Shown: positions 7,961 to 48,427, numbered from the stretch's first letter. The stretch is DNA of 51,732 nucleotides from an uncultured Candidatus Saccharibacteria bacterium (GCA_964512925.1 CAZEKH010000006.1:1-51732), one strand, 5' to 3'. Numbers and translations: made by a program. The notes: generated by a model not told the origin, from the letters alone.

Positions 7961-8116
7961 GCTTATCCAGACTCTGCTTTTTTAAGCAGAGGGCAACCTA
8001 TCCTAAATAACCTTGGACAAGGTGCCGATCCAGACCCTCACCCTAACCCTCTCCCATCCTCCTTCATCAAGATTTCGGAGGACAAGGAGGGAGAGGGAAA
8101 AAGTCGGAGATAAGAG
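7961..8116 (+). promoter_or_regulatory. SAM-I-clan riboswitch (SAM-I/IV-like, simplified P2) in the metK leader
   Basis: P1 is CTTATC(7962-7967)/GATAAG(8109-8114). J1/2 is CAGA. P2 is the hairpin CTCTGC-ttttttaa-GCAGAG. P3 is GGCAACC...GGTGCC. J3/4 is GATCC. A long P4 hairpin follows. It sits directly upstream of metK. A possible extended -10 (TGgTATAGT) lies at 7934-7942. Confidence 0.65.
8035..8100. repeat. G/C-rich palindromic element copy (composite) forming riboswitch stem P4
   Basis: The sequence is cctcaccctaaCCCTCTCCcatCCTCCttcatcaagatttcGGAGGacaaGGAGGGAGAGGG. It contains both the CCCTCTCC/GGAGAGGG and the GGAGGACAA (reverse complement of TTGTCCTCC) signatures seen elsewhere. Confidence 0.7.
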
Positions 8117-8179
8117 AAAGGGTTTATTTTATTGCATAAATTTAATTTTTAAAGAGTAATAAAAATAATTTAGATTCTT

Positions 8180-9397
8180 ATGAAGAAACAATTAAAAATT
8201 GTTAAAAAAACAGAAATTAAAAACCCTGGCAGAAGTTTTGTGTTTACTTCCGAATCGGTGACAGAAGGTCATCCGGATAAGATTTGTGACCAGCTGTCAG
8301 ACGCTATCTATGACGAGATGCTTAAAAAAGACCCGAAGGCTCACGCGGGTATAGAATGTTTTTGCACCACGGGTCTGGTGGTGGTGGGAGGGGAAGCTCG
8401 GACCAAAGCCTATGTGGACATCCAGGAAGTGGTTAGAAGAACTTTAAAACGGATTGGCTATGACAAGCCGGAAATCGGTTTTTGTTATAGCGATGTGGGA
8501 GTTTTGTCTACCCTGCACGAACAGTCGCCGGATATTGCGCAAGGAGTAGACGAAGGCAAAGGGGAATTTCAGGAGCAGGGAGCCGGGGACCAGGGACTGA
8601 TGTTCGGTTTTGCCTGCGACGAAACCAAAGAACTGATGCCTTTGCCTATTTCTTTGGCGCATAAACTTACCCGGAAACTTTCCGAGGTCAGGAAATCCGG
8701 CAAGCTGCCTTACCTTAGGCCGGACGGCAAAAGCCAGGTTAGCGTCCAGTATTTAAACGGCAAGCCAATAAAAGTTACGGCTGTGGTGATTGCCGCGCAT
8801 CATAGCGAGCTGATAGAAATGGAAAAACTTCGCGCGGATGTCAAAAGGCTGGTTATAGAGCCGGTTTTGGGCAAGCTACTCAAAAAAGATACGGAAATTT
8901 TTATTAATTCCACCGGAAAGTTTGTCATCGGCGGGCCGCCGGCGGACGCGGGACTGACTGGCCGAAAAATCATTGTTGACACTTACGGCGGGTATGCGCC
9001 ACACGGCGGCGGGGCTTTTTCCGGCAAATGCGTAACCAAAGTGGATAGGTCTGCTTCATATGCCGCCAGGTACATTGCCAAAAATGTAGTGGCCTCGGGT
9101 TTGGCGAAAAAATGCCTGGTGCAGCTGGCTTACTCTATCGGCGTGGCAAAGCCGGTTTCGGTAATGGTTGACACTTATGGCACGGGCAAAATTTCTGACA
9201 GCCGTTTGGAAAGCATAGTAACTGAGATTTTCCCTATTAAGCCTGCAGACATCATAAAAAAGCTGAACCTTGAACGCCCGATTTACGAACAGACCGCGGC
9301 TTATGGCCATTTTGGTAGGACAGATATCAAACTACCTTGGGAAAAGACCGATAAAATTAAGCTGTTAAAAAAACTTTCAAAATCCCGAGTTATTTGA
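8180..9397 (+). CDS. metK: S-adenosylmethionine synthetase
   Basis: [55 protein letters not shown] and GGGAFSGK motifs are present; length is 405 aa. Confidence 0.95.
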
Positions 9398-9414
9398 GGT
9401 AATATTACATATTT

Positions 9415-9455
9415 AACCCTGCCTTGATCCATATCCGGGCGGGGTTTTGTTTTTG
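9415..9455 (+). terminator. Probable intrinsic terminator after metK
   Basis: The stem aaccctgcc/ggcggggtt has one G.T pair and a 14-nt loop, followed by ttgttttt. Confidence 0.5.
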
Positions 9456-9479
9456 GGAAAAAATGGGGTAAAATTAGTT

Positions 9480-9788: not shown

Positions 9789-9792
9789 ATTT

Positions 9793-11919
9793 ATGAAAAA
9801 TACTATCCAAGAGTTAGCAAAACTTATCCGCTACTGGTCTTTGGTTTCAACCACTGAGGCGGGGAGTGGGCACCCGACTTCCAGTATGTCTGCCGCTGAT
9901 CTGATGACTGTTTTATTTTTTGGAGGCTTGTCCTCCGAAGCCTCGGCGAAGGAGGGATATTTTAAGTTTGACCTGCAAAATCCAGGTTACGAAAACAACG
10001 ACAGACTGATTTTTTCCAAAGGCCACGCAAGCCCGCTTTTTTATGCGCTTTGGGCAGCAGCAGGTCAGAGGGTTATTGGAAGTAGTCAAAACGACATAAG
10101 TTCGACCTCTCCCTCAATCCCTCCCCAGGCCTGGGGAGGGAGGGAAGATGGCGGGGCAGCTGCGGCACAGACGCGGACTTACGCGGACCAGGCTGCAAAC
10201 GCTGACTCACGCGGAAAAATTACAAGGGCGATGGATCCGGAGGAATTATTCACACTCAGAAAATTCGGAAGCCGGCTGGAGGGGCACCCTACTTTGGAGT
10301 TTCCTTATACCGAAGTTCCGACCGGAAGTTTGGGGCAGGGCCTTTCTGTGGGCGTAGGAATGGCAATGTCCGCAAAGCTCGACAAGTTAAGCTACAGGAC
10401 TTTTGTTTTGCTTGGCGACAGCGAAATGGCCGAGGGCAGTGTATGGGAAGCTATGGCTTTGGCTTCGCACTATAAGCTGAACAATTTAGTGGGAATAATA
10501 GATGTAAACCGCCTCGGGCAACGCGGAGAAACTATGCTTGGGCACGACACCGAAACATACAAAAAACGCGCCGAGGCTTTTGGGTGGGAGGCTTATGTAA
10601 TAGATGGACATAATTTGGAAGAGATTGGGTCAGTTTATCAGAAAATCAGTCAATCAGTAGATAAGCCGGCAATGATTATTGCCAAAACTTTGAAAGGCAA
10701 GGGTGTGTCGTTTTTGGAAGACAAAGACAATTGGCACGGAAAAGCGCTTTCGAAAGAAGATTTGGAGAAGGCTTTGAAGGAGTTGGGGGAGGTGGATAAG
10801 AGTCTATTTGGCATTATTTCTTTTCCAGAAGCTGTAGCCTCACCCCAGCCCTCTCCGACAGCGGAGAGGGTGCCGAAGGCGGGTGAGGTAAAAGCGACAG
10901 ATTATCCGCCAGACAAAAAAATTGCGACCAGGAAGGCTTATGGTAATTTATTGCCGGCTTTGTCTGAAGCTTTTCCTAATCTGGTAGTTTTGGACGCGGA
11001 AACTTCTAATTCCACTTATGCCGAAGCTATAAAAAAAACTCATCCGGAAAAATTTAGTGAGTGTTTTATAGCCGAGCAAAATATGGTTGGTATGGCCTTG
11101 GGTTTTTCTAAACGAGGTAAAATTCCTTTTGTTTCCACTTTTGCCGCATTTTTGTCCCGCGCTTTTGACCAGATCCGGATGTCCCAGTTTGCCGGAAGTA
11201 ATATTAAATTTATCGGCTCTCACGCCGGGGTCAGCATAGGGGAAGACGGCGCAAGTCAGATGGCGCTGGAAGACATTGCAATGTTTAGAACGATGCATAA
11301 TTGTGTAGTTTTGTATCCTTCGGACGCTGTTTCGGCAGAAAAGTTAATAGTTGAGGCAACTAAACATTTTGGCAATGTATATATTCGCACGACCAGGATG
11401 GAAACAGAAGTGATTTATGCAAATGACAAAATTGACATAAATGACAAGAGTGATCAAAAATTGATGAATCATAACTTCAGGATTGGGGGAAGCTGTACTA
11501 TCAAATCTTCAGATAAAGATATTGCTACTGTCATAGGCGCGGGCGTTACGCTTCACGAGGCTTTGAAGGCTTACGAGATTTTGCAAAAAGAAAACATCAA
11601 CATTCGGGTTATAGATTTATATTCCATCAAACCCATCGACACCGAAACTTTGGTAAAAGCCGCCAAAGAGACTAAAAATATCATTGTCGTAGAAGACCAT
11701 TACCCCGAAGGCGGCATAGGAGAAGCCATAGCTTCTTCAATTCTGGACTCGTTCTCTCCAAGCCTTGGAGAGAAGGCGGGTAGAGAGGTTGGAGACTTTA
11801 AATTTACAAGTTTAGCAGTCAAAAAAATGCCGAAGAGCGGGAAGTCGGAAGAGTTGTTGGCTTATGAGGAGATAGATGCGGAGGCGATAGCAAAAGCAGT
11901 GAAAAATATTTTGAAATAA
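9793..11919 (+). CDS. tkt: Transketolase (N- and C-terminal halves fused) with several short in-frame insertions
   Basis: TEAGSGHPTSSMSAADL, SKGHASP, GSLGQGLSVGVGMA and GDSEMAEGSVWEA (TPP-binding half); AEQNMVGMALG and VEDHYPEGGIGEA (Pyr/C-terminal half). Confidence 0.9.
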   Translation: MKNTIQELAKLIRYWSLVSTTEAGSGHPTSSMSAADLMTVLFFGGLSSEASAKEGYFKFDLQNPGYENNDRLIFSKGHASPLFYALWAAAGQRVIGSSQNDISSTSPSIPPQAWGGREDGGAAAAQTRTYADQAANADSRGKITRAMDPEELFTLRKFGSRLEGHPTLEFPYTEVPTGSLGQGLSVGVGMAMSAKLDKLSYRTFVLLGDSEMAEGSVWEAMALASHYKLNNLVGIIDVNRLGQRGETMLGHDTETYKKRAEAFGWEAYVIDGHNLEEIGSVYQKISQSVDKPAMIIAKTLKGKGVSFLEDKDNWHGKALSKEDLEKALKELGEVDKSLFGIISFPEAVASPQPSPTAERVPKAGEVKATDYPPDKKIATRKAYGNLLPALSEAFPNLVVLDAETSNSTYAEAIKKTHPEKFSECFIAEQNMVGMALGFSKRGKIPFVSTFAAFLSRAFDQIRMSQFAGSNIKFIGSHAGVSIGEDGASQMALEDIAMFRTMHNCVVLYPSDAVSAEKLIVEATKHFGNVYIRTTRMETEVIYANDKIDINDKSDQKLMNHNFRIGGSCTIKSSDKDIATVIGAGVTLHEALKAYEILQKENINIRVIDLYSIKPIDTETLVKAAKETKNIIVVEDHYPEGGIGEAIASSILDSFSPSLGEKAGREVGDFKFTSLAVKKMPKSGKSEELLAYEEIDAEAIAKAVKNILK
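9927..9957. repeat. Palindromic element copy (TTGTCCTCC..GAAGGAGG type) inside tkt
   Basis: The sequence cttgtcctccgaagcctcggcgaaggaggga encodes LSSEASAKEG. Near-identical copies lie at 45012-45042 and, in reverse complement, within 8059-8090. Confidence 0.6.
10106..10147. repeat. Palindromic element copy inside tkt
   Basis: ccctccccaggcctggggaggg (10119-10140) is a perfect 22-nt palindrome, flanked by tccct/aggga. It lies within extra sequence of about 50 aa relative to canonical transketolases. Confidence 0.7.
10838..10888. repeat. Nested palindromic element copy at the tkt N-half/C-half junction
   Basis: The sequence is CCTCACCCcagCCCTCTCCgacagcGGAGAGGGtgccgaaggcGGGTGAGG. GTAG lies immediately 5' (10834-10837). 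It encodes SPQPSPTAERVPKAGEV. Confidence 0.75.
11752..11774. repeat. Palindromic element copy near the tkt C-terminus
   Basis: ttctctccaag c cttggagagaa has perfect 11-nt arms. It encodes part of SFSPSLGEKAGRE. Confidence 0.6.
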
Positions 11920-11951
11920 GACATGGACACAGTTATAAGTTTAAAATCCAG

Positions 11952-12066
11952 GTCATCCCGGAACCCGCCTTGGGCGGGTATCCGGGATCCAGGGTTAGTT
12001 GCTTAAACTTACGATATGATAATAAACTCCTGGATCCCGGCTCTCGTTTGACTCGGCCGGGATGAC
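11952..12066. repeat. Two-hairpin MITE-like element, empty copy, inverted relative to the 49487-49856 copy
   Basis: Left arm gtcatcccggaacccgccttgggcgggtatccgggatccaggg, 34-nt spacer, right arm cctggatcccggctctcgtttgactcggccgggatgaca. The termini TGTCATCCCGG / CCGGGATGACA are inverted repeats. Confidence 0.8.
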
Positions 12067-12129: not shown

Positions 12130-13152
12130 ATGGATCGCAATTTAGCTTTAGAATTTGTACGCGTTACCGAAGCTGCGGCTATTGCTGCAAGCAGGTGGAT
12201 AGGCAAGGGCGAGGCCAAAAAAGCTGACGGAGCCGCGGTTAAAGAAATGCGCGCGCGTTTTAACCAGATAGATTTTCGCGGGGTAGTGGTTATAGGCGAA
12301 GGCGCCAAAGACGAAGCCCCGGAACTTTTTCAGGGTGAAAAAGTTGGGTCAGGCTGGCAGAACTCCCCTAACCCCTCTTTAGCAAAGAGGGGGAGCGCTG
12401 CTTTTGAGGATAAGCATAATACAAAATACATAATACAAAATACAAACACTTTCGACCTCGCCGTAGATCCTCTCGAATGCACTGACTCTGTTGCCTTCGG
12501 CCGCTACAACGCAATGTCAGTTATTGCCGCAGGAAGCAAGGGGAGTTTGCTTTCAGCCCCTGATACTTATATGGAAAAGATTGCCGCAGGGCCGAAAGCT
12601 TCTAAAGTAATTAGTTTAAACAAAACCCCAAAACAAAATATAGAAAATGTAGCCAAAGCACTTGGAAAAAAAGTTTCAGAAATTACAGTTTGTGTTTTAG
12701 ACCGCGAGAGGCATAAAAGTTTAATCGAACAAATAAGAAAAGCTGGGGCAAGAGTTCGTCTTATCACCGATGGTGATGTAGCCGGAGCCATAGCGACTTG
12801 TATGCCAGAAAGCGGGATTGATCTTTTAATGGGCATAGGTGCTTCAGCAGAAGCTGTTTTGGCAAGCGCAGCAATCCGAGCGCTCGGAGGACAGCTAGAG
12901 GCTCGCTTCAAGCCTAAAACTGAAGCTCATTCAATTTTAGTAAAAAAACAAGGCTTGTCCCTGACAAAAATTTACCAAGCAAGAGATTTGGTAAAGGGGA
13001 ATGTGTTAACTTTTACTGCCACTGGCATCATTGACGGCCCGCTTTTAAAGGGAGTGAGAACCTATGGTAATATAATAGAGACCCATTCTATCGTGATCCG
13101 GGCAAAAAGCGGAACAATTAGATATATTAATACTCAACATAGAACAAAATAA
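12130..13152 (+). CDS. glpX: Class II fructose-1,6-bisphosphatase (GlpX-type FBP/SBPase) with an in-frame insertion of about 28 aa
   Basis: LALEFVRVTEAAAIAASRWIGKG..ADGAAV, AVDPLECT, ITDGDVAGAI and GIGASAEAVLASAAIRALGG closely follow E. coli GlpX as I recall it. Confidence 0.9.
   Translation: MDRNLALEFVRVTEAAAIAASRWIGKGEAKKADGAAVKEMRARFNQIDFRGVVVIGEGAKDEAPELFQGEKVGSGWQNSPNPSLAKRGSAAFEDKHNTKYIIQNTNTFDLAVDPLECTDSVAFGRYNAMSVIAAGSKGSLLSAPDTYMEKIAAGPKASKVISLNKTPKQNIENVAKALGKKVSEITVCVLDRERHKSLIEQIRKAGARVRLITDGDVAGAIATCMPESGIDLLMGIGASAEAVLASAAIRALGGQLEARFKPKTEAHSILVKKQGLSLTKIYQARDLVKGNVLTFTATGIIDGPLLKGVRTYGNIIETHSIVIRAKSGTIRYINTQHRTK
12363..12395. repeat. Palindromic element copy inside glpX
   Basis: cccctcttt agc aaagagggg is a 9-bp perfect stem. 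It encodes NSPNPSLAKRGS. The same core occurs at 42263-42285. Confidence 0.7.
12415..12442 (+). repeat. 14-nt tandem direct repeat (2 copies plus a partial one) inside glpX
   Basis: cataatacaaaata occurs twice, followed by caaaca. It lies within the same insertion and encodes HNTKYIIQNTN. Confidence 0.8.
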
Positions 13153-15645: not shown

Positions 15646-16137
15646 CTTTACGGAGTACGGAAAAGACAGTACGGATATACGGAAAAATAAAATTTTTTTA
15701 ATATGTCTGTAGAAACAAAAAAAGATTTGGTATTTTCTGAATTGAGCGGTAGAGTGATAGGGATTTTATTGGATGTATATAATCAATTGGGTTATGGTCA
15801 TCCTGAAAAAACCTACCAAAAAGCGCTATGTGTTGCTTTCAAAAAAGCCGGCATATCTTATGTTGAACAGCTTTATGTACCGGTAATTTTTGAAGAAAAA
15901 GTGGTAGGAAAAAACTATTTTGATTTTTTGATTGAAGATAAACTGGTGCTTGAAATAAAAAAAGGAGACTATTTTTCCAAAACCCACATTGACCAGGTAT
16001 ATAAATATCTTGTAAGTAAAAATTTAAAATTAGGAATATTGGCTTATTTCGCGCCTAGGACTGTACATTTAAAGCGAGTTGTAAATTTATACTAAATGTA
16101 TTTTCCGTATATCCGTAAATTTCCGTATTCCGTAAAG
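15646..16137 (+). mobile_element. TACGGA-arm hairpin element carrying a GxxExxY (PD-(D/E)XK-like) gene
   Basis: The arms ctttacggagtacggaaaagacagtacggatatacggaaaaa (15646-15687) and ttttccgtatatccgtaaatttccgtattccgtaaag (16101-16137) are inverted repeats that bracket the ORF. Confidence 0.7.
15703..16095 (+). CDS. GxxExxY family protein (PD-(D/E)XK nuclease-like fold)
   Basis: The signature GYGHPEKTYQKAL (G-x-x-E-x-x-Y) is present, followed by D..IEDKLVLEIK (D..E.K nuclease-like). Length is 130 aa. Confidence 0.8.
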   Translation: MSVETKKDLVFSELSGRVIGILLDVYNQLGYGHPEKTYQKALCVAFKKAGISYVEQLYVPVIFEEKVVGKNYFDFLIEDKLVLEIKKGDYFSKTHIDQVYKYLVSKNLKLGILAYFAPRTVHLKRVVNLY

Positions 16138-16145: not shown

Positions 16146-17045
16146 ATGACAAAATTTTTTCTCGACTCCGGCGATCCGAAAGAAACCAAAGAGGCTTTGG
16201 CGGTTTTGGGTCAGCTGGACGGCCAGACGACCAATCCGTCACTCATTGCTAAAAATCCAGATGCGGTCGGTAAAAAGTTTTCTGAAAGCGAGATTCAAGA
16301 TTTTTACCAGAGAGTGGTAGGGGAGATATCGGCTATGATCCCGAGCGGTAGTGTGTCCATAGAAGTCTATGCTGACCTTGAAACCACAGCGGAACAAATG
16401 GTTAGGCAGGGCAGGCAGTACAACACCTGGATACCAAACGCGCATATTAAGCTGCCTATCACAAAAGAAGGCCTGAGGGCTGCCAATGTTTTGGTTTTAG
16501 AAGGTATAAATGTCAATATGACCCTGTGTTTCTCACAGGAGCAGGCCGCGGCTGTCTATGCTGCAACCAAGGGCGCCAAAAAAGGCCAGGTATTTTTGTC
16601 GCCGTTTGTCGGCCGCCTGGACGACATCGGCTTTCGGGGTATGGATTTGGTGGAAAATATTTTAAAAATGTACAGCAAAGCTTCTAAAGCAACCTCTCTG
16701 TCCGCAGCCCCGGACATCTCCCCTCGCCAGGGGAGAGAAGGTTCTTTGGAGGGGGTGTGTCACGTAGAAGTTTTGGCTGCCAGTATAAGAAGCCTCGGGC
16801 ATATGGATGAATGTATAAAAGCCAATGTGGATATAATTACAGCTCCTTTGAAAATTTTGAAAGAATGGCAGATATTAAGTCATCAGTCATCAGTTGTCAG
16901 TGATCAGTTAAAATTAAAACCAATAGCATATAAACAAATAGACCTAAACCAAGCTTGGGACAGCTTTGATATCCAGCACGAGCTTACAGACAAAGGGCTG
17001 AAAAAATTTGCCGAGGACTGGAACAATTTAATTGCTCAGAAATAA
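16146..17045 (+). CDS. tal: Transaldolase (short Fsa/TalC-type) with in-frame insertions
   Basis: FFLDSGDP, GQTTNPSLIAK, IKLPIT.EGL, NVNMTLCFS, SPFVGRLDD and HELTDKGLKKFAEDW are present. At 299 aa it is longer than the roughly 215-220 aa usual for this type. Confidence 0.85.
   Translation: MTKFFLDSGDPKETKEALAVLGQLDGQTTNPSLIAKNPDAVGKKFSESEIQDFYQRVVGEISAMIPSGSVSIEVYADLETTAEQMVRQGRQYNTWIPNAHIKLPITKEGLRAANVLVLEGINVNMTLCFSQEQAAAVYAATKGAKKGQVFLSPFVGRLDDIGFRGMDLVENILKMYSKASKATSLSAAPDISPRQGREGSLEGVCHVEVLAASIRSLGHMDECIKANVDIITAPLKILKEWQILSHQSSVVSDQLKLKPIAYKQIDLNQAWDSFDIQHELTDKGLKKFAEDWNNLIAQK
16717..16736. repeat. Palindromic element copy inside tal
   Basis: tctcccct cgcc aggggaga is an 8-bp perfect stem. 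It encodes DISPRQGRE within extra sequence between MYSK and VEVLAASIRS. Confidence 0.6.
16881..16908 (+). repeat. 4 x 7-nt tandem repeat inside tal
   Basis: The units are catcagt catcagt tgtcagt gatcagt. They encode HQSSVVSDQ. Confidence 0.7.
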
Positions 17046-17075: not shown

Positions 17076-17119
17076 GACCAAAGAAAAAAGACCAATTGAC
17101 TGGTCTTTTTTCTTTGGTC
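17076..17119. terminator. Bidirectional terminator hairpin between tal and tRNA-Pro
   Basis: A perfect 19-bp stem gaccaaagaaaaaagacca / tggtcttttttctttggtc with a 6-nt loop. The 3' arm overlaps the encoded CCA end of the tRNA. Confidence 0.7.
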
Positions 17120-17188
17120 GGGATGCTGGGAATTGAACCCAGTCTACCTGCTCCCAAAGCAGGCGTACTACCGGTATACTACATCCCG
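17115..17188 (-). tRNA. tRNA-Pro (anticodon UGG), CCA encoded
   Basis: The minus strand reads CGGGATG-TA-GTATACCGGTAGTAC-G-CCTGC-TTTGGGA-GCAGG-TAGA-CTGGG-TTCAATT-CCCAG-CATCCCG-A-CCA. The cloverleaf has a 7-bp acceptor stem and a canonical T-loop. Confidence 0.9.
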
Positions 17189-21560: not shown

Positions 21561-24500
21561 ATGTTTACAAAAAATTCTAGTTTTTTTGGCAGATGGTATA
21601 AATTGTCAGCTTTGGCGCTGGCTTTTTTTATTTCGCTTCAGCCGTTGGGGGTTGTGTTTGCGGAAGATGTTATTGATTTAACCCAAGCTGAAAATGTTTC
21701 TGAGCAAACATTGAATCAGGAAAATGAAATTATAAATGAAGTTGCTCAAAATACAGACCAAAGTATTCCGCAGGATATAATACAAAATACACAAACTGAA
21801 AAAACCTCCGTAAATGAGCTTTCTTCAAGTCCGAACTTAGAACCGACTGCAATTCCAGAAATGAATACATCGAACCTTTCCGGTCCGACAAATGTTCCAG
21901 AGCCTGTTACAGGGTATGTTGATAGATTCAGCAAGTTACCTAAAGTTGATGACAGCTCCGGCGCTTTAATACAAAATATAGAAATTCAAAGTCCTTTGGG
22001 CAGAAACGGCCTGCAGCCAAATTTGTCTATCGCATATAACTCTCAAGACAAAACCGACCAGGACATTTTTGGGTATGGATGGAAAACAAATATACCCTAT
22101 ATTGAAAGATTGTCTAAAAAAGGTGTTGATCATTTATTTTCGGAAAATTTTTTTGTTTCTTCTTTGGATGGTGAGTTAGCAACAACTGCATTGAGTTCAG
22201 TATTTGTTGCGCGATCGGAAAACGGCAATTTCAACAAGTATGTTTTTTCCAGCAATCAGTGGCTTATGTCGGCAAAAAACGGTTGGCAATATAAATTTGG
22301 GTATGCAACATCAACTCAGCTGTCGGACCCTCAAAATCCGGATAATATTTCTAGATGGATGCTGGAAGAAATCCGTGATATGAATGGTAATTATATAAAA
22401 TACGAGTATTTTAAAGATTCTGGACAAATATATCCTTCAAGGATTGTTTATACAGGAAGTGGGCAGCAGGACGGTATTTTTGAAATTTCTTTTTTAAGAG
22501 AATCCAGGACAGACGTTGTTCCTAGTTATAGAACGGGTTTTTTAGTCCAGTCCAAATATAGGATAAATGAAATTCAAGTCAAAACAAACGGATCCTGGGT
22601 TAGAAAGTACTCATTTTCTTATATTTCAGGAGACAACGGGTGGAGATCCTTGCTTTCAGCTGTGATTGAATATGGAAAAGACGAACTAGGTAATGTCATA
22701 CAGCTCCCGCCTACCGAATTTAAATATCAGAAAGGCACATTTTCTTGGACTTTAAACCAACAAAATTATACCGCTTCTTTTAGCTTGGCTGCTGACCAAG
22801 CTTACCAGTATGAGATTCAGGATTTAAACGGCGACACCAGACCCGATGTATTTCACGGCATTAGTGGTGTATTTTTTACTAACCACACAACTTGGTTTTA
22901 CAATCCGGCGCAAAAGAATTGGCTTGAAGCTCCGAGCTCAACAATTCCTATAGATTTTAAAGTTGGGGAAGATAGAAATAATTTTATTACAAATTGGGAT
23001 AGGGGAGTTAGGGCGGCTGATTTAAATGGGGATTTATATCCGGACATTTTGAAAGCTGAAGATGGGGCAAATGGCGGTTTTACTTCTTATATAAATAACA
23101 AAGGTTTAGGATGGATGCAAAATAATAATTTTTCGGCAAGTATCGGGTTGGGCAAGAGCAAAGACTCCACTGAAGGGAGTTTTCAGGAGTATGGGGGATA
23201 TGTTTTGGATCTAAATGGCGATGGGTTGGCGGATATTATTAGACAAAAGACAGGGCATTATCTGGGCGCGCAATTAAATAACGGGTATGGATATAATTCA
23301 GCTACCAGTACTTGGAATACGCCGGTAGGCTTGAGATATAATAACGATGGTTCGGTTTTTTCCGATGTAAATAACGACGGACTTCCTGATTTGCAGAGTA
23401 CGTATTACACAAATTCTGGTAACGATTATCACTCTGATACATATTTAAATACCGGATCAGGAAGCTGGGTTGCAAACGAAGCAGTATTTAGCGACCCGGC
23501 CCACCGTCTTATAAATAATTCTGGTTACTCTGAAACTGAAGGGATGAGGTTTCTGGATTTAAATGGGGACGGTTTGTTAGATGCGGCAAGAGATTGTTGT
23601 GGCGGGGGGCAAGAACTTTATTTTAATAAAGGCTCTGGTTGGTATCAAAAACCTTATAGTTGGGTTTTGCCAGCAGGAACTGTAAGCCCTGGCAAGGATA
23701 CCGATATAAATGGTGACGGCCTTGTTGATTTTCTGTATGAATTCAACAAAGGAAGCGCTCAATATTATGCTTGGATATATTTTCACGATGGGGTTGTCCC
23801 CGATTTGCTTTCCACAGTTATTTACCCGGAAGGTGGAAGAACTTCTGTTAGTTACAAAAAATCCAGTGAATTAGCTGATAGCAGTGGAAATTTATTAAAC
23901 CCAAATTTGCCTTTACAGATTGATTTGGTAACAGCAATCCAGAATTTTGACGGCGTAAGCACTTCAAGTCCCGAGTCTTATATTTATAAGGGTGGTTTGC
24001 ATTATTATAATAACCCGTTCGATAAAAAATTTGCTGGATTTTCGGAGATAGATAAGACTGATGCGGAGGGGAATGTTACTAAAACTTTCTATCACCAGGG
24101 GGACGGCACGGATGTAAGCCATGGGGAGTTTGAGGATAATTTTTGGAAAATTGGAAAGCCATATAGGGTTGAGCAGTATGACAACAGTGGCAACCTGTAC
24201 AAAAAAACCATTAACAAATGGGAAAGCGCGACTTCTTCCCAAAATTCCCTGGCCGGGTTTGTAAAACTCGGGCAGACTCTACAGCAGGATTATGACGGTA
24301 CTTCAAACCATAAAGACAAAGCTGAAAGCTATACTTACAACAACTCTACCGGCGACATTACGCAAAAAGTAGAGTATGGGGAAGTTACTGGAAGTGACAA
24401 CGGGACTTTTTCAGACTCAGGCACTGACGATTTTACCACCACTTTTTCCTATGCCACAAGCAGTACCAGTAGCGCGCTTAGTTTGCTTTCAGGTTCATTG

Positions 24501-30045: not shown

Positions 30046-30192
30046 TCACTTACAAGAAAAACAGTGGGGACATGACCCATTGTTTGTCAATGGATTTCGT
30101 GCGAAGTGTAATTAAAACAGGCAAAACAATGAAGGGAACAAAAAGGGTCAGGAGCAGTTTACGAAATAATTTAATCTTGTTATATTGTAAAT

Positions 30193-30867
30193 ATGCCAAG
30201 ACCGTTAAGAGCAGATATAGCGGGAATTATTTACCATATTATTAACCGGGCAAATGCCAGGTTAGCCATCTTTAAGAAAGACTCTGACTACATAGCTTTC
30301 CTTAAGGTTCTTTTTGAAGCCAGAGAAAAATTTCCCGTAGAAATTCTTTCTTTTTGCATAATGCCTAACCATTGGCATTTGGTACTAAAACCCTTGGAAA
30401 ATGGGGCACTTTCTAAATTTATGGGTTGGCTGAGTATGACCCATACCCAAAGATGGCATGCTAACCACCATACAGTGGGCAGCGGTCATCTTTATCAGGG
30501 GAGGTATAAATCATTTCCAGTACAGACAGATGAATACTTTCTGCAGCTTGTCAGATATGTGGAGTCAAATTCACTAAGAGCGAAGTTAGTGAAAAGAGCA
30601 GAGGATTGGAAGTGGGGGAGTTTGTGGATTAGGGAAAAAGGAGATGTAAAGCATAAACAGTTTTTAGGTAAATGGCCTATACCAGTACAAAGTAACTATC
30701 TAGTTTTAATCAATAAATCACAAGCAAAAATTCAGTTAGACAGCATTAGAAGTTCAATAATAAAAAACCGCCCATATGGCGATGATTTATGGGTAAAGCG
30801 TACCGCAGAGAAGCTGGGACTGGAGTCTAGTTTAAGACAACCAGGCAGACCTAAAAAAGGCTCCTGA
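30193..30867 (+). CDS. REP-associated tyrosine transposase-like (RAYT / IS200-like Y1 HUH) protein
   Basis: The N-terminal YHIINRAN is present. The HUH motif is MPNHWHLVL. GHLYQGRYKS is present, as is the catalytic-Tyr helix RYVESNSLRAKLV. Confidence 0.8.
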   Translation: MPRPLRADIAGIIYHIINRANARLAIFKKDSDYIAFLKVLFEAREKFPVEILSFCIMPNHWHLVLKPLENGALSKFMGWLSMTHTQRWHANHHTVGSGHLYQGRYKSFPVQTDEYFLQLVRYVESNSLRAKLVKRAEDWKWGSLWIREKGDVKHKQFLGKWPIPVQSNYLVLINKSQAKIQLDSIRSSIIKNRPYGDDLWVKRTAEKLGLESSLRQPGRPKKGS

Positions 30868-30941
30868 CCCCTTTATGTGTGACTGTTTTTTGCAATAATC
30901 ATATCAATATGATACGATATAAGTAGCTAAATGATACGAAA

Positions 30942-41382: not shown

Positions 41383-41811
41383 ATGTTCGGAAATTTGATG
41401 GAGAGGCTGATGCCTGAACCAGAAAAGCCTGAAAAAAAAGAAAGTACTGAGGCAGATTTGGCAGAATATATAAAAAAATACCAAATAACTTATGAGCTGA
41501 GTGAGGATTCAGCGGTTACCCTTTGTTCGGTTTTGCCGGAGGGGAGTATAGATGAGTATCGCAGGGAAATCGCTATTGCGTTTGATGCTATTTTAAATAA
41601 GTTAAAGCTAGAGGGTTTGGTTTCCCAAACTTTGGAAGTTACCCGAAGTTATACATATGGCAAAAATGGCGGACCGGCAGTCAGATTTAAAATATTGGCA
41701 AAAGACAAAATAAGTCTGCTGCCTAGTATGGGTATAAATCAGTTGTCTGACAGAAAAGTTGTTGACGCTTCAATGTTTGTAAATGCCCACCAGCTGCCAG
41801 AAAAAGAATGA
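41383..41811 (+). CDS. Hypothetical protein
   Basis: ORF only. Its stop overlaps the next start (ATGA). Confidence 0.4.
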   Translation: MFGNLMERLMPEPEKPEKKESTEADLAEYIKKYQITYELSEDSAVTLCSVLPEGSIDEYRREIAIAFDAILNKLKLEGLVSQTLEVTRSYTYGKNGGPAVRFKILAKDKISLLPSMGINQLSDRKVVDASMFVNAHQLPEKE

Positions 41812-42449
41812 ATATTTATTCCAAGCAGGAAATAAAATTGTTTAAAAAATTGAACTCGGAGAAAAAGGTTCAGGATTTTTTAAATTCTTTAAAAATTAAT
41901 TTTGAAGAAAAAGGCGACACCTGTATGTCGCCACGCAGAGTCCTTGAAACAAAAAAAGCTCACTGTATGGAAGGGGCAATGCTGGCTGCGGCGGTTTTGG
42001 AATTTCATAAGCAAAAGCCTTATGTAATGGATTTAAGAAGCGCTGCGCACGATTTTGACCACGTGGTTTGCGTGTTTAAGCGGTTTGGCTGCTATGGCGC
42101 TGTGTCTAAAACCAATCACGCGGTTTTACGCTACCGCGAGCCGATATACAGAACGCTTCGGGAACTTGCCTTGTCTTACTTTCACGAATATTTTGACGAT
42201 GACGGCGAGAAAACTTTAAGGCAGTATTCCCGGCTTTTGGATTTAGGGCATTTTGATTTAGACCCCTTCTTTAACAAAGAGGGGGATGGGGGGAGTTGGA
42301 GGACAGCAAAACGGGATTTGTTTGAAATTCCCGAATACTTAGATACCATAAAACATTTTAACATCCTAACGCCCAAACAAATCAAAAACTTAAGGCCGGC
42401 TGATGATATTGAAATTCAGGCAGGAAAATTGGTTGAGTATACAGAATAA
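41808..42449 (+). CDS. Hypothetical protein, possible transglutaminase/papain-like Cys-His fold
   Basis: KAHCMEGAMLAA ... DHVVCVF suggests a Cys/His pair. The assignment is weak. Confidence 0.4.
   Translation: MNIYSKQEIKLFKKLNSEKKVQDFLNSLKINFEEKGDTCMSPRRVLETKKAHCMEGAMLAAAVLEFHKQKPYVMDLRSAAHDFDHVVCVFKRFGCYGAVSKTNHAVLRYREPIYRTLRELALSYFHEYFDDDGEKTLRQYSRLLDLGHFDLDPFFNKEGDGGSWRTAKRDLFEIPEYLDTIKHFNILTPKQIKNLRPADDIEIQAGKLVEYTE
42263..42285. repeat. Palindromic element copy inside the hypothetical CDS
   Basis: ccccttcttt aac aaagaggggg forms a 10-bp stem with one G.T pair. It encodes DPFFNKEGDGG. The core is as at 12372-12392. Confidence 0.6.
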
Positions 42450-42514: not shown

Positions 42515-42569
42515 CCCTCTCCGAACACGGAGAGGGTTAGAGCCTGCCCTGAGCTTGTCGAAGGGGTGA
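42515..42569. repeat. Palindromic element copy, intergenic (between convergent gene ends)
   Basis: The sequence is CCCTCTCCgaacacGGAGAGGGttagagcctgccctgagcttgtcgaaGGGGTGAGG. GTAG lies 3 nt upstream (42508-42511). Confidence 0.7.
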
Positions 42570-42673
42570 GGTAATAATATTTGGTTATTAAATAAAATTA
42601 TGTTTCATGGGAGAGGGAGTAAAACAGCTTCAATTTTTTTATAAATATTTTGAAGAGATGTGGAACGGGTAGG

Positions 42674-43863: not shown

Positions 43864-43992
43864 TGTCATCCCAGAATTTTTATAGCTTTGTATTAAAAAT
43901 ATCTGGGATCTATGAGTTTGCATTTGCATCAAAGTTTAATGCTGTTTACACTGGATCCCGGATATCTCGCTTAGCGAGATTCCGGGATGACA
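43864..43992. repeat. Two-hairpin MITE-like element, empty and partly degenerate copy, between bshB and bshA
   Basis: Left arm tgtcatcccagaattttt...atatctgggatc (AT-rich, decayed). Right arm ctggatcccggatatctcgcttagcgagattccgggatgaca. Confidence 0.7.
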
Positions 43993-44708: not shown

Positions 44709-44747
44709 AAGATTGTAAATAGACTTTAGTGGTTAGTTTTCTTAAAA

Positions 44748-45647
44748 TTATAGATTGGGTAAATATGCTAATTCCTGGTTTTCGATTTGGTCTCTTTTGA
44801 TAAAATTAACTTCCGGGAAATCCTCCCTTTTTAAGTATTCGTATTCCGCGTTGCCGGTTATGTAGTGGGTAGAGTTGATGACTGAGTTCATCCAGGCAAA
44901 CCTTTGGTCGCGGCCTGGAGTTATTTGCGACTTTTCTATTTTATCATTTACTGAAAACTGGGTAAATTTGTCGCCGCCGTGGTGGAGTTCGGCTAGTTTA
45001 AGGCTAAGGGCACCCTCCTTCGCTGAAGCTATGGAGGACAAAAGGGGTGTAGGGTTTATAGAGGGGGCAGGGGAGGGGAGGATGCGGGCGCGGACGATTT
45101 CGTTTTCGTACAGTACATCCGCATAAAAATTCTCGGTTAAATCAGCCGCGTTGTTTCTAAAAGTTTTGTCCGAAGACCTAACTACTTCAATCCCGTCTAA
45201 GAGACCCAATTTTTGGTACATCTCCAGGCAAAAATCCGCCACGTTTGTCGCATTAACCGATTGAAAAATAGAAATGGGGTTCGCACCCTCTCCCTTAATC
45301 CCTCTCCCCTCGAGGGAGAGGGAAGGTTGGGGGGAGACAAAGCGGGGGAGTTGTTTTAGGATTTCTGCTTGCCAGCTAGCCGGTATCCTTTTTAAATACA
45401 GCGGGGAAAAGTTTTTTTGGATTTTATTTTCCTGGACAAAATTTAAGCGTACTTCCGCGCCGGTTTTTATGTCGTTTAAAACAGTTATGGTTTCTCTAAA
45501 GTCCGCGTCCGAGTCATGGTAAAAAAATATGATCTTGCCGCCGATTTGTTTTTGCAGGTTTTTGGCTGTATTGATCTTGGCCACCAAAAAGCGTTTGGGG
45601 AAAAATCCGCACGGTTGTTGGCCAAAACAAATAATAGGTTCTTGCAT
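44748..45647 (-). CDS. Compact BshC-like protein (putative bacillithiol cysteine-adding enzyme homolog) with palindromic-element insertions
   Basis: FGQQPCGFFPKRFLVAKINTA...IIFFYHDSDADFRE resembles the BshC segment GGQQAGLLTGPLYTIHK...IFWVAGEDHDLDE. ITGNAEYEYL resembles IAGPGEINYWGEL. At 299 aa it is far shorter than the roughly 540 aa of BshC. Confidence 0.45.
   Translation of the reverse strand: MQEPIICFGQQPCGFFPKRFLVAKINTAKNLQKQIGGKIIFFYHDSDADFRETITVLNDIKTGAEVRLNFVQENKIQKNFSPLYLKRIPASWQAEILKQLPRFVSPQPSLSLEGRGIKGEGANPISIFQSVNATNVADFCLEMYQKLGLLDGIEVVRSSDKTFRNNAADLTENFYADVLYENEIVRARILPSPAPSINPTPLLSSIASAKEGALSLKLAELHHGGDKFTQFSVNDKIEKSQITPGRDQRFAWMNSVINSTHYITGNAEYEYLKREDFPEVNFIKRDQIENQELAYLPNL
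45012..45042. repeat. Palindromic element copy (TTGTCCTCC..GAAGGAGG type) inside the bshC-like CDS
   Basis: The coding strand reads ttgtcctccatagcttcagcgaaggaggg and encodes LSSIASAKEG. Compare the tkt copy, which encodes LSSEASAKEG. Confidence 0.65.
45285..45335. repeat. Palindromic element copy inside the bshC-like CDS
   Basis: The sequence is caCCCTCTCCcttaatCCCTCTCCCctcgaGGGAGAGGGaaggttgggggg. On the coding strand it encodes SPQPSLSLEGRGIKGEG. Confidence 0.7.
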
Positions 45648-45697: not shown

Positions 45698-45726
45698 TTG
45701 ACTAATACCCCAGGGGGGTATATTAT
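45698..45726 (+). promoter_or_regulatory. csoR-copA promoter with a CsoR-type operator in the spacer
   Basis: TTGACT, 17-nt spacer, TATTAT. The spacer contains the GC-rich inverted repeat ATACCCCAGGGGGGTAT (45705-45721), which resembles known CsoR boxes (TACCC..GGGGGTA). Confidence 0.65.
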
Positions 45727-45766
45727 TATATTACAATTTTCAATTATTAATTTTACAATTTACAAA

Positions 45767-46033
45767 ATGCTTAAAAATAATAAGAACCTGTTAGTAAACA
45801 GATTAAAGAGAATAGAGGGGCAGGTTAGGGGGATTAGGAAAATGGTGGAAAACGGCAAATATTGCGTGGATATTTTAATTCAAAGCCTGGCTGTGGAAAA
45901 CTCCTTGGAGAGTTTTAACGCCCGGATGCTGGAAAATCATTTAAATGAACATGTAGCTCACCAGTTTATGCGCGGGCAGACCAAGAAAGCGGTCAAAGAA
46001 CTGCTAAAAATATATAACCTGGCAAATAAATAA
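45767..46033 (+). CDS. csoR: CsoR/RcnR-family metal-sensing repressor
   Basis: LVNRLKRIEGQVRGIRKMVENGKYCVDILIQ matches the family. Start taken as ATG 45767 because TTG 45698 is the promoter -35. Confidence 0.85.
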   Translation: MLKNNKNLLVNRLKRIEGQVRGIRKMVENGKYCVDILIQSLAVENSLESFNARMLENHLNEHVAHQFMRGQTKKAVKELLKIYNLANK

Positions 46034-46066
46034 GAGCGGAATTTTTAAATATTCTAAATATTGATT

Positions 46067-48427
46067 ATGGGGGTTCAAAATAAACAATTTAATGTTCAGG
46101 GTATGCACTGTTCTTCTTGCGGCGCAATTATTAAACGCACTTTGCAGAAACAAGAGGGTGTGGTTTCGTGCGAAGTAAATTATGCTACTGAAACAGCAAA
46201 TATTAGTTTTGACGAAACAAAAATTTCACCGAAAAAAATGTCGGAAAAAATTCAGCCTTTGGGATATAGTTTAAAACTGCCGAATAGCAATTCCTCTAAA
46301 GACCTCTCTTCAAAAGGAGAGGGGGGAAAGCATATTATGCCGGATGGCAGTGTTATGTCGGCCGGAGACCATAGCGCGCATTTGGGACTTAGCCAGACTA
46401 AAGAAGAAAAGTTACTAGAGCTAAAAGAGCAGAAACAAAAAGTTGAATTTGTTTTGCCTTTGGCGTTTTTGGTTTTTATTTTGATGCTTTGGGAAATTGC
46501 CGGCAATTTTTTTGATATTATCCCAAAGTTTTTTTTGCCGATGGATTTATATAATCCTGTTTTATTTGTTTTATCTACCTTGGTGCTATTTTGGGCTGGG
46601 AAGCAATTTTTACTGGGGGTTTGGCGATTTATCCGCTTTGGCGCTGCCAATATGGATACCCTGGTGGGGATCGGCACTTTGACAGCGTATATTTATAGCG
46701 GGATTTTGGTTTTATTTCCCGGAGTTAAGGTCAAGCTGAACTTGCCTGAATTGGTGTTTTTTGACGTGACTATCGTGGTAATTGGGTTTATTGTTTTGGG
46801 AAAATTTTTAGAAATGCGCTCTAAGCTAAAAACCAGCGAAGCCATAGAAAAATTGTTAGGCCTCCAGGCTAAAACGGCGCTGGTGCTTCAAGCAGGCAAA
46901 GAAATTGAACTGCCGATTGACTTGGTTAAAATAGGGGATTTGATAATAGTCAAGCCTGGAGGCAGGCTAGCGGTTGACGGAGTTATTGTTGAAGGTAAAT
47001 CTTCTGTGGACGAGAGTATGATAACCGGCGAACCTATGCCCGTAGGTAAAAATATCGGCGACAAGGTTGTTGGGGGTACGATAAACAAACAGGGAAGCTT
47101 TGTAATGCGCGCGGAAAAAGTTGGCAAAGAAACTCTGCTTAGTCAAATTATAAAAATGGTGGAAAATGCACAAGGGAGTAAAGCGCCTATAGAAGAATTG
47201 GCAGATAAAATTTCCGCTGTGTTTGTGCCTGTGGTTTTGGGTATTTCCTTGTTATCGTTATTGTTATGGTTATTTTTTGCGCCAAGGTTTGTTCCATTTG
47301 ACCAGGCGTTGTCTTTGGGAATTTTGTGCTTTGTCAGCGTTTTAGTGATTGCTTGCCCGTGCGCTTTGGGACTTGCCACTCCCACTGCTATTATTGCGGG
47401 CGTGGGCAAAGGCGCGTCTTTGGGTATACTTATAAAAAATGCGGAAAGTTTGCAACATTTGGCAAGTATTGACACATTGGTTATAGACAAGACAGGTACA
47501 CTGACTTATGGAAGACCAGAGGTTGTAGATCAATTTAAAATTGAAAATTTAAAAATAAAAAAAATAAGTAGTCTGCAAATAGCTGCGAGTTTAGAAAAAA
47601 AATCCGAACATCCTTTGGCTGAGGCTTTTGTGAATAAAGCTAAAGAAGACAAAGCAGAAATTGTAGAAGCTACGGAGTTTGAAAATTTAGAAGGCCGGGG
47701 AGTGAAAGGTAAGGTGTTAGGCGAAATATATTTTGTCGGCAGCCCAAAACTTGCCGAGGAATTAAAAATAAAGATTGATGTTGAAAAAGTTAGCGCATTT
47801 ACAAAACAGGGAAAGACCCCTGTGCTTTTAATGTCAAAAACAGAACTTTTGGCGATTTTTGCCGTGGCTGACAAGCCGAAAGAAAATGCCAAAGACAGTA
47901 TTGAGATTTTGCATAAGCTGGGTATAAAAGTTGTGATGTTAACCGGGGACAACAGGCAAACAGCCGAGTATGTTGCGCAAAGTTTAGGTATAGACAAAAT
48001 ATTTGCTGAAATGCTGCCGGCTGAAAAAGCACAAAAAATTCAAGAACTGCAAAAGCAGGGCCTTCTGGTTGCTATGGCCGGCGACGGGATCAATGATGCG
48101 CCGGCTTTGGCTCAGGCAAATGTGGGGATGGCTATGGGCAGCGGAACCGATGTGGCAATTGAAACCGCTGATCTAACTTTACTATATGGCGATATTGGAA
48201 AAATCGCGCTGGCAATCCGACTTTCAAGGCTGACTATGCGCATTGTTAAACAAAATTTGTTTTGGGCTTTTAGCTACAATATCATTGGTATACCTTTGGC
48301 GGCTGGGATTTTTTTCCCGCTATTTGGCTGGCTCTTAAACCCGGCGTTTGCCGGCCTGGCTATGGCTCTAAGTTCGGTAATGGTGGTAAGTAACTCCCTG
48401 AGGCTGAAGCGGATAAATTTGCTATAA
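46067..48427 (+). CDS. copA: Copper-translocating P1B-type ATPase
   Basis: The N-terminal HMA motif is GMHCSSCG. TGEP, CPCALGLATP, DKTGTLT and GDGINDAP are present. An alternative TTG start lies at 46061. Confidence 0.95.
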   Translation: MGVQNKQFNVQGMHCSSCGAIIKRTLQKQEGVVSCEVNYATETANISFDETKISPKKMSEKIQPLGYSLKLPNSNSSKDLSSKGEGGKHIMPDGSVMSAGDHSAHLGLSQTKEEKLLELKEQKQKVEFVLPLAFLVFILMLWEIAGNFFDIIPKFFLPMDLYNPVLFVLSTLVLFWAGKQFLLGVWRFIRFGAANMDTLVGIGTLTAYIYSGILVLFPGVKVKLNLPELVFFDVTIVVIGFIVLGKFLEMRSKLKTSEAIEKLLGLQAKTALVLQAGKEIELPIDLVKIGDLIIVKPGGRLAVDGVIVEGKSSVDESMITGEPMPVGKNIGDKVVGGTINKQGSFVMRAEKVGKETLLSQIIKMVENAQGSKAPIEELADKISAVFVPVVLGISLLSLLLWLFFAPRFVPFDQALSLGILCFVSVLVIACPCALGLATPTAIIAGVGKGASLGILIKNAESLQHLASIDTLVIDKTGTLTYGRPEVVDQFKIENLKIKKISSLQIAASLEKKSEHPLAEAFVNKAKEDKAEIVEATEFENLEGRGVKGKVLGEIYFVGSPKLAEELKIKIDVEKVSAFTKQGKTPVLLMSKTELLAIFAVADKPKENAKDSIEILHKLGIKVVMLTGDNRQTAEYVAQSLGIDKIFAEMLPAEKAQKIQELQKQGLLVAMAGDGINDAPALAQANVGMAMGSGTDVAIETADLTLLYGDIGKIALAIRLSRLTMRIVKQNLFWAFSYNIIGIPLAAGIFFPLFGWLLNPAFAGLAMALSSVMVVSNSLRLKRINLL
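46303..46322. repeat. Palindromic element-like hairpin inside the copA MBD-TM linker
   Basis: cctctctt caaa aggagagg forms an 8-bp stem with one G.T pair. It encodes DLSSKGEG. Confidence 0.45.

Follow-up and report, generated by a model that had tools for sequence, protein, structure and literature searches.

Dispersed hairpin repeats in reading frames and a riboswitch leader of a Doudnabacteria-like bacterium of the candidate phyla radiation

Palindromic repeats inside protein-coding genes have been regarded as peculiar to Rickettsia, whose palindromic elements (RPE) measure ~100-150 bp and encode a conserved peptide of ~30-50 amino acids (Ogata et al., 2000, 2002, as summarized in PMC10969869). 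The BoxC/PIT/TMECO motif (Bachellier et al.; Hoyne et al., 2000; Holder et al., 2015), by contrast, is described in the latest of these papers as "always located intergenically". The paper counts 3610 copies across 262 genomes of Proteobacteria and 23 in E. coli K-12, and knows of no function or association with mobile elements (Holder et al., 2015; PMC4666352). Repetitive extragenic palindromic (REP) sequences are likewise found outside genes; a GTAG or CGTC tag is usual, and they flank the gene of their own REP-associated tyrosine transposase (RAYT; PMC3116915, PMC3733652). Here we analyze short G/C-rich hairpin repeats in a stretch of 51,732 nt (GCA_964512925.1, CAZEKH010000006.1:1-51732), referred to as the window, which is part of a 96,437-bp contig from a bacterium of the candidate phyla radiation (CPR). 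Copies occur in a riboswitch leader, in an intergenic spacer and, in frame, in tkt, glpX, tal, copA and two further genes. With a probability of roughly 70%, they are dispersed hairpin repeats that were inserted as DNA, are tolerated in frame and are read through by the ribosome. The literature searched, with most subscription journals outside its coverage, contains no description of coding-region palindromic repeats in CPR bacteria, in agreement with a preliminary description of the same DNA.

Repeat families in the window

The preliminary description had proposed one family of palindromes and listed 12 coordinate ranges. All of them hold the sequences reported there, 10 lying inside open reading frames (ORFs) and two in non-coding DNA (8035-8100 and 42515-42569). 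The weakest copies are those at 46303-46322, with a stem of 6 bp, and at 42263-42285, with one mismatch. An excess over composition-matched expectation, for which a genome-wide test had been suggested, is clear within the window: perfect hairpins that are G/C-rich and have only pyrimidines in the 5' arm (stem ≥7, loop 3-12) are found seven times against 0.09 expected from 200 dinucleotide shuffles, CCCTCTCC-N3-12-GGAGAGGG has three exact copies against 0.00 expected, and GGAGAGGG alone occurs 11 times against 1.0. The mirror class with the purine arm first yielded no perfect G/C-rich hairpin in the same scan of the window. Because the reverse complement of a pyrimidine-first palindrome stays pyrimidine-first, strand choice does not explain this bias, which is a genuine trait of the family. 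A tail of decayed copies is nearly absent among the pyrimidine/purine hairpins, as in the CPR loci 13 perfect, 7 one-mismatch and 3 two-mismatch hairpins with 9-nt arms contrast with 0, 0.1 and 1.1 expected, respectively. An assembly artefact was ruled out, because the same elements are present in many independent assemblies.

Most of these hairpins are of a pyrimidine-arm/purine-arm type, CCCTCNCC..GGNGAGGG, here called type 1. Judged from its sequence, type 1 very probably belongs with the BoxC/PIT/TMECO motif of Proteobacteria, an affiliation that the preliminary description had not recognized: it consists of the same blocks, CCCTCNCCC and GGGNGAGGG, including the TTA second loop and sometimes a third block, and the pyrimidine block precedes the purine blocks in both. 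A blastn comparison of window positions 8030-8105 with E. coli (5,426 genomes) gave an exact match of 24 nt (ACCCTCACCCTAACCCTCTCCC) that comprises two blocks and the TAA/TTA loop. It is present in 5401 of the genomes, the median number of places being 13 per genome; the one E. coli copy that was examined is intergenic, between cpsG and wcaJ. The published TMECO pattern, 5'-CCCTCNCCC N3-6 GGGNGAGGG N3 GGGNGAGGG-3' (Holder et al., 2015; PMC4666352), has no strict match in the window. One copy is found on the minus strand at 10837-10870 if up to one mismatch per block is allowed, and once the loops are relaxed the three-block layout is seen in four copies (8035-8097, 10105-10144, 10837-10889 and 45286-45322). 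The remaining type-1 copies are two-arm hairpins with variant pyrimidine and purine arms. Hairpins of the form CCCTCTCC(C)-loop-(G)GGAGAGGG also occur in tkt-anchored loci of Verrucomicrobiota, Armatimonadota, unclassified metagenome-assembled genomes (MAGs) and other CPR bacteria. Type-1 hairpins do not avoid genes: of the 21 perfect ones in 273 kb of CPR loci, 19 are situated in open frames of at least 100 codons, a share about equal to the open-frame fraction of ~0.9.

The second element, type 2 (GTCCKCCGAAGCYTYRGCGAAGGAGG), corresponds to the TTGTCCTCC..GAAGGAGG motif that had been regarded as linked to the first. It forms a separate bulged hairpin that is unrelated to type 1 and sometimes nested in it. 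Hence the repeats themselves are real, but the single family proposed for them has to be replaced by at least two, and AT-rich and GC-rich insert families are present in addition. Type 2 measures ~30-36 nt. Its outer stem (GTCCKCC/GGMGGA) is separated from the inner one (GCY/RGC) by a symmetric internal loop (GAA/GAA), and a loop of 2 nt closes the hairpin. Two window copies of TTGTCCTCC..GAAGGAGG lie within three mismatches of the 26-nt core, against 0.00 expected, and a covariance model scores all three copies in the window, each of which also belongs to the model's seed. The exact core, GTCCNCCGAAGCNTNNGCGAAGGAGG, is found in at least 120 metagenome contigs and in 12 viral contigs. Among the matches listed, the contigs span 33-72% G+C and have unrelated flanks, conservation ends sharply outside gaCyT-core-AwG (with gaCyT directly preceding GTCC as the flank consensus), and the core is read in at least five combinations of frame and orientation, both orientations included. 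On low-GC contigs among the same matches, 19 of 43 copies lie deep in long ORFs; type 2 is in frame there in Pfam-confirmed pyrG, dnaG, ligA, dprA and a gene for a XerC/D-type recombinase, and is also found outside genes.

Base-pair covariation supports the type-2 hairpin. Pair 13/16 is C-G in 65, T-A in 46 and different in 10 of the copies among the matches listed, pairs 11/18 and 12/17 are both switched in the copy of the window's metK leader (from G-C to A-T and from C-G to T-A), and pair 10/29 is T-A, G-C or A-T among covariance-model copies in loci that were not selected for the motif. Since an outer extension of the stem (columns 2-5 with 32-35) pairs in no more than 29-72% of the copies, the model includes just one of its pairs. 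Confident matches to the model are restricted to the window and Doudnabacteria-like loci among 89 tkt-anchored sources (1.45 Mb). Rfam 15 yielded only chance-level microRNA-like matches over 8028-8135 at E up to 10, and the core sequence was not found in the literature searched, which excludes most subscription journals; type 2 is thus apparently undescribed.

Besides these elements, a third palindromic family of the form GTCATCCCGG..hairpin..CCGGGATCCAGGGT was observed. Its five copies (11947-11995, 12034-12063, 43945-43992, 49488-49517 and 49809-49856) are all intergenic, unlike those of the families that enter genes.

Insertions in genes and in the metK leader

The window is gene-dense, has a G+C content of ~42%, and Pfam supports the gene calls for metK (8180-9397), tkt (9793-11919), glpX (12130-13152), tal (16146-17045) and copA (46061-48427). 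Compared with one genome per species, the tkt protein has its best relatives, at ~63% identity, in CPR/Patescibacteria MAGs that are mostly labelled Doudnabacteria, and the gene order metK-tkt-glpX-aldolase-LOG-tal is kept in these relatives. The genome is that of a Doudnabacteria-like CPR bacterium. Since even the nearest tkt relative among 5.8 billion proteins is only 65% identical, exact insert junctions were taken from other, closer pairs of tkt genes; related loci or contigs used for comparison are designated by L-numbers (such as L001 or L221).

The tkt product has 708 amino acids, compared with ~605 in most orthologues, and extra residues are present at every element site. A type-2 hairpin at 9925-9960 (plus strand) constitutes a 30-nt in-frame insertion of 10 amino acids (LSSEASAKEG) at tkt hot spot 1 (the 9927 site). 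It is followed on the same strand by a composite insertion of 162 nt (54 amino acids; 10090-10251), which contains a three-block type 1 at 10106-10147 and a G/C-rich segment encoding ADQAANADSRG. The inter-domain linker harbors a nested double palindrome at 10838-10888 (plus strand), CCTCACCCC-AG-CCCTCTCCG-ACAG-CGGAGAGGG-..-GGGTGAGG, which translates as SPQPSPTAERVPKAG. In the C-terminal domain, a type-1-like hairpin at 11752-11774 (plus strand), TTCTCTCCAA-GCC-TTGGAGAGAA (SFSPSLGEKAGRE), adds ~10-14 amino acids; between the window and L001, a compensatory change from T-A to C-G preserves pairing in the orthologous hairpins. Examples of peptides that span the inserts are ..VASPQPSPTAER.. and ..LSSEASAK.. 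As had been predicted, the inserts appear to give the proteins disordered loops at the surface: in an AlphaFold model of the tkt product with a mean predicted local distance difference test (pLDDT) score of 88.7, all of them are coil of depressed confidence, with pLDDT below 50 at residues 100-103 and 107-138, 58 on average at 351-360, and 61-72 at 651-670. The protein also bears an AT-rich insert of 14 amino acids.

In-frame inserts that are not pyrimidine/purine palindromes were observed in two further families, one AT-rich (KIDINDKSDQKLMN, and RIENREKDITF, a 33-nt insert in L083 that is absent in L084) and one G/C-rich (ADQAANADSRG / ADKTAVADARGN). In the window they are located at 11425-11466 and 10150-10215, and they are also seen in the tkt genes of L083 and of L001 and L002.

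In glpX, a type-1-like hairpin at 12363-12395 (plus strand), CCCCTCTTT-AGC-AAAGAGGGG, lies in an insertion of ~93 nt, the ~31 extra amino acids of which are absent from the aligned orthologues. The window, L011, L085 and L087 have four pyrimidine/purine hairpins of different sequence at this site, each preceded by G-x-G-W-K/Q; the site is empty in L001, L003, L004 and L083. The tal insertion (72 nt, 24 amino acids) has two adjacent hairpins at 16693-16738 (plus strand), GTCCG-CAGCCC-CGGAC and TCTCCCCT-CGCC-AGGGGAGA, and is missing from all seven aligned orthologues. Alignment thus bears out the extra residues that had been noted earlier in tkt, glpX and tal, the number in glpX being slightly above the earlier estimate of ~28.

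Non-coding copies are illustrated by the metK leader (7950-8125, plus strand). RF00162 (SAM-I) matches upstream of metK in the relatives L002 and L083, and in the alignment to these the window leader keeps the conserved SAM-I core, CTTATCCAGA..GGCAACC..GGTGCCGATCCAGAC-insert-GTCGGAGATAAGAG, with 66 nt in place of the P4 loop. On the minus strand this composite (8035-8100) reads CCCTCTCCC, a 33-nt type 2, and then GGGAGAGGG-TTA-GGGTGAGGG, which would correspond to the blocks of TMECO "type A" with type 2 nested in loop 1; the type-2 copy (8053-8088) scores 47.8 bits with the covariance model, in whose seed alignment it is included. Rfam itself detected no riboswitch or other known RNA family at 7850-8250, even at E ≤ 10, the sole match at gathering score in the window being one tRNA. 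The insertion into riboswitch helix P4 that had been postulated therefore holds through homology to Rfam-positive relatives and not by a direct model match. Only two of eight relatives with a metK leader in the scanned locus have a riboswitch that is detected by Rfam (the leader of L085 is mostly cut off), and inserts in the leaders may account for the missed cases. As separate observations, P4 carries a different palindromic insert in L004 (150-395), and L087 (1480-1652) has its own inserts in P2 and P4.

For the other copies, L221 provides a syntenic contig for comparison. A conserved hypothetical ORF (41808-42449) contains an imperfect pyrimidine/purine hairpin, CCCCTTCTTT-AAC-AAAGAGGGGG, at 42263-42285 (plus strand), and its L221 orthologue a longer type-1 element, HPHPQPLSQRERGEK, at the same site. 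Type-1 copies in the adjacent intergenic spacer (42515-42617) read CCCTCTCCG-AACA-CGGAGAGGG and then ..GGGGTGAGG, with GGAGAGGG at 42610; the spacer measures 224 nt in the window, compared with 52 element-free nt in L221. The gene at 44748-45647 carries two copies on the minus strand, namely a type-2 hairpin at 45009-45044, sense-oriented in the gene (LLSSIASAKEG), and a three-block type 1 at 45285-45337, CCCTCTCCC-TCGA-GGGGAGAGGG-ATTAA-GGGAGAGGG (SPQPSLSLEGRGIKGEG). Its product is ~42 amino acids longer than the family baseline of 255-260, the family maximum being 368. The label "bshC-like" that had been attached to this gene finds no support in Pfam or NCBIfam; its neighbors encode a PIG-L deacetylase and a GT4 glycosyltransferase. 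In both this protein and that of the ORF at 41808-42449, the insert sites are insert-bearing or variable among homologues. Finally, the copA linker after the HMA domain has a weak pyrimidine/purine hairpin, CCTCTC-TTCAAAAG-GAGAGG, at 46303-46322 (plus strand), within an insertion of 33 nt (11 extra amino acids) that is lacking in L221.

Taken at the protein level, the extra peptides could be ancestral or convergent low-complexity linkers, the palindromy of their DNA being incidental, and their sites are indeed linkers and loops, where length often varies. This explanation is already contradicted by the data and appears extremely improbable: most orthologues, close ones included, do not have the inserts, the same DNA also turns up outside coding sequence and within a riboswitch, the peptides of type 2 come from several frames and both orientations, and the enrichment lies in the DNA motif and is strand-symmetric. 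The preference for repeated DNA over convergent linkers expressed in the preliminary description is thereby upheld.

Gain and loss, and possible explanations

Alignment of 120 tkt homologues (603-739 amino acids) revealed about eight hot-spot sites with recurrent insert peptides. These derive from type 1 (NPHPNPLPKGEGK / SPQPSP..GRE), from type 2 (RRSAEALAKE or, in the opposite orientation, PSFAKASEGESA) or from other inserts (NFKFQIPNSK, KNDENDKNEQKL, ADKTAVADARGN), and proteins that are 83-91% identical differ by whole inserts. At the DNA level, the tkt gene of L081 is distinguished from that of L082 by a type-2 insert of exactly 33 nt, located where the window has its 9927 copy. The same 33-nt insert at this site distinguishes L083 from L084, which also differ by an AT-rich insert of 33 nt, and a 102-nt type-1 composite is present in one and absent in the other of L085 and L086. 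Gain or loss of the inserts is recent, since tkt genes with 88-91% identity differ by inserts of exactly 33 nt. The family of the protein encoded at 44748-45647 has the same hot-spot pattern. Its homologues display further in-frame insert peptides, ARFIEPxEPDKSGNY, EWRDPL..DSS..LGMT and DAPQGQRGF, which we take to resemble the peptides that widespread short repeats would encode; should this be correct, the in-frame behavior extends to additional repeat families. Nesting, too, recurs outside the window: type 2 is nested in type 1 in the glpX insert of L085, a type-1 hairpin adjoins a type-2 copy in L126, and type 2 lies inside type 2 in L004.

Stop codons contain both T and purines, and all-pyrimidine and all-purine arms are consequently free of TAA, TAG and TGA in all six frames. 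The same openness is seen in the common type-2 variants, while in the GCTTTAGC variant one frame on each strand contains TAG or TAA. The earlier statement that every copy keeps the reading frame open is correct as an observation, but it is weak evidence: because the arms are stop-free anyway and only inserts with lengths divisible by three survive in essential genes, frame-keeping is to be expected and is not independent evidence of design. Ribosomal bypass or splicing of the inserts was also considered and is not needed, as all inserts are stop-free and have lengths divisible by three.

The most plausible explanation is that the genome was colonized by several families of ultra-short, non-autonomous, hairpin-forming dispersed repeats. 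Copies would arise at the DNA level at many positions, and those that survive would be found in short spacers, in the apical loop of a riboswitch, in loops of other copies and in codons for surface loops and linkers. Genic copies would persist through their length, divisible by three, and their stop-free arms, and would be transcribed and, we infer, also translated, adding 10-54 residues of disordered loop rich in Pro, Ser, Gly and Glu. What the data themselves establish is that the elements are repeats, are insertions relative to orthologues, were recently present or absent between relatives, lie in loops, are nested and have covarying base pairs. Our best guess for the mode of spread is a hairpin-dependent event on single-stranded DNA, which might involve a trans-acting enzyme or template switching at stalled replication forks.

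Several points weigh against this explanation. The analysis covers 52 kb of the genome, and no mechanism of movement was seen in the comparisons made. The target duplications about which the preliminary description had inquired were not seen at the three filled/empty tkt pairs (L081/L082, L083/L084 and L085/L086). Type-1 inserts have no constant unit length but range from 30 to 162 nt and are composite, and the re-use of codon positions, as at tkt site 1 and the glpX site, could reflect ancestry and loss or recombination between relatives. A possible mover in the window was rejected: the gene at 30193-30867 encodes a RAYT-like Y1/HUH transposase (PF01797, 4e-18; NF047646 with 68.7 bits, below the cutoff of 80) with HWH and YQGRY motifs, and it is bracketed (30142-30873) by inverted 14-mers, AAAGGGTCAGGAGC. 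These 14-mers are absent from the rest of the window; the gene's homologues in L168, L036 and L111 have private flanking inverted repeats with a GGGTCAG core. Because these flanking repeats are private and share no sequence with the elements, nothing ties the gene to type 1 or type 2. Lastly, the copy at 45285-45337 is common to the window and L221, with 35 of 36 nt identical and 11 of 11 same-residue codons unchanged, whereas the remainder of the gene (66% protein identity) has 65% nucleotide identity and 45% of its same-residue codons identical (Fisher p = 2e-4). Neutral or purely selfish DNA does not predict such synonymous conservation, which implies either nucleotide constraint in place, gene conversion or site-specific re-insertion. 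Mobility, as proposed earlier, is inferred from the presence/absence patterns and nesting, the comparisons made having revealed no transposition mechanism, target duplication or enzyme.

Some of these points suit an alternative without transposition, in which the elements spread and are lost by homologous recombination, gene conversion or template switching at unstable hairpin or triplex sites, the hot spots being sites of instability. The absence of target duplications at the compared pairs, the variable and composite insert lengths, the re-use of the same sites with different inserts in relatives and the 5' extension GGCCGNAGG shared by the filled alleles of L081 and L083 would all be accommodated, and TMECO loci in E. 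coli are tied to local genome instability and rearrangement by Holder et al. (2015; PMC4666352). We nevertheless judge this alternative unlikely, because it leaves unexplained how near-identical, sharp-edged units of 26-37 nt came to reside in unrelated genes and in genomes of 33-72% GC, and how type 2 became nested in type 1 at unrelated loci.

The synonymous conservation of the copy shared with L221 rather invites the view that the hairpins are functional nucleic-acid elements kept by selection, acting as structures in mRNA or single-stranded DNA or as protein-binding sites. They could modulate translational pausing, mRNA stability, or replication and recombination; more concretely, the Shine-Dalgarno-like GGAGG arm could be masked by the anti-Shine-Dalgarno-like CCTCC arm. 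The compensatory change in the L001 tkt copy, the covariation in type 2, the near absence of decayed copies and a sequence that is nearly identical across phyla and GC contents fit this view. However, the closest relatives have no copies at the same sites, the positions are in many different genes and unrelated to gene function, and neither earlier work nor Holder et al. (2015; PMC4666352) found a regulatory role for BoxC in E. coli. Moreover, the conservation argument rests on one shared copy, and conservation could equally result from recent re-insertion or from gene conversion among copies. Selection for function is therefore a rather unlikely explanation for the elements as a whole, and we retain insertion of dispersed repeats that are read through as the preferred one.

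A bolder extension is conceivable, although we are doubtful of it: a set of ultra-short hairpins (BoxC/TMECO, the GAA/GAA hairpin and probably others) might persist nearly unchanged across phyla, be actively gained and lost in genes and structured RNAs of CPR bacteria, be held at the nucleotide level and be a major source of variation in protein length. If true, a conserved trans-acting machinery or a nucleic-acid function would be implied. The recurrence of the same 26-37-nt sequences from E. coli to CPR bacteria can now be approached through filled and empty alleles, nested copies and synonymous conservation. The inserts also offer a concrete source of protein-length heterogeneity in CPR bacteria, with transketolases of 603 to 739 amino acids within one clade, and they can hide riboswitches and distort homology-based annotation.

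Some features outside the repeat families deserve mention. A small PD-(D/E)XK_3 "GxxExxY" gene is situated between LOG and tal (15703-16095), and L081-L084 have small genes for four-helix-bundle proteins (23S_rRNA_IVP/bAvd) in the same and nearby slots (tkt-glpX and glpX-aldolase), which suggests that small selfish genes move between housekeeping genes. A protein of 2718 amino acids with RHS, SpvB, LamG and FG-GAP similarity is encoded at 21561-29717, with an internal tandem duplication of ~1050 nt (26506-27374 versus 27556-28424, 69-82% identical). Perfect A/T-rich hairpins of 17-19 bp are found just 3' of genes (1494-1532, 17076-17119 and 51603-51644), one of them directly adjoining the tRNA (17118-17188). 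They resemble terminators and have no relation to the G/C-rich families.

Comparison with described repeats

BoxC/TMECO has so far been described as strictly intergenic, proteobacterial and of unknown function. The window copies resemble it in their blocks, in having no known associated transposase and in their locally unstable loci. They differ in that their loops are longer or hold nested elements, in that many are simple two-arm hairpins, and in their CPR host; of the 10 window copies that are type 1 or composite, eight are in frame inside genes. The E. coli motif carries the designation of an intrastrand purine-motif triplex; what was computed for the window copies is hairpin folding.

REP and REPIN sequences with their RAYTs (Nunvar, 2010; Bertels and Rainey, 2011; Di Nocera, 2013) are also imperfect, bulged and highly repeated palindromes of 20-40 nt, and a RAYT-like gene is present in the window. 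Yet the window repeats do not flank this gene, most of them lie inside genes, and GTAG is found near only two of 12 copies (at 10834 and 42507). Nor do they match the definition of miniature inverted-repeat transposable elements, terminal inverted repeats plus target-site duplication, no duplication having been seen at the three filled/empty pairs.

Among very small repeats, the small dispersed repeats (SDR) of Nostocaceae, on which Elhai and co-workers are said to have reported in 2008, are reportedly 21-27 nt long, partly palindromic and nested, and were judged mobile and too small to encode anything. Compared by description, they share the very small size, dispersal and nested insertions with the elements of the window; phylum and sequences differ, and in-frame residence in housekeeping genes is not their hallmark. 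The mobile G+C clusters of yeast mitochondria and the "byp" elements of Magnusiomyces are short G/C-rich palindromes in A/T-richer genomes that are also found inside coding genes. These systems are organellar, however, and byps, the lengths of which are not divisible by three, are skipped by the ribosome, whereas for the inserts described here, being divisible by three and stop-free, simple read-through suffices.

In behavior, the RPEs are the closest counterpart, as had been proposed in the preliminary description. In both cases palindromic repeats are inserted in frame, at fold-compatible sites, into unrelated housekeeping genes (here tkt, glpX, tal, copA and the genes of two conserved hypothetical proteins), occur also in non-coding DNA and RNA genes, and have no known transposase. 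The comparison is one of description and behavior, not of sequence, and it concerns another host lineage; RPEs are three to five times longer than the units in the window (20-66 nt), and the frame in which type 2 is read varies. Since CPR bacteria have BoxC-like elements and a second, apparently undescribed hairpin family in frame in genes of central metabolism and replication, palindromes in coding regions are much more widespread than the example of Rickettsia would suggest.

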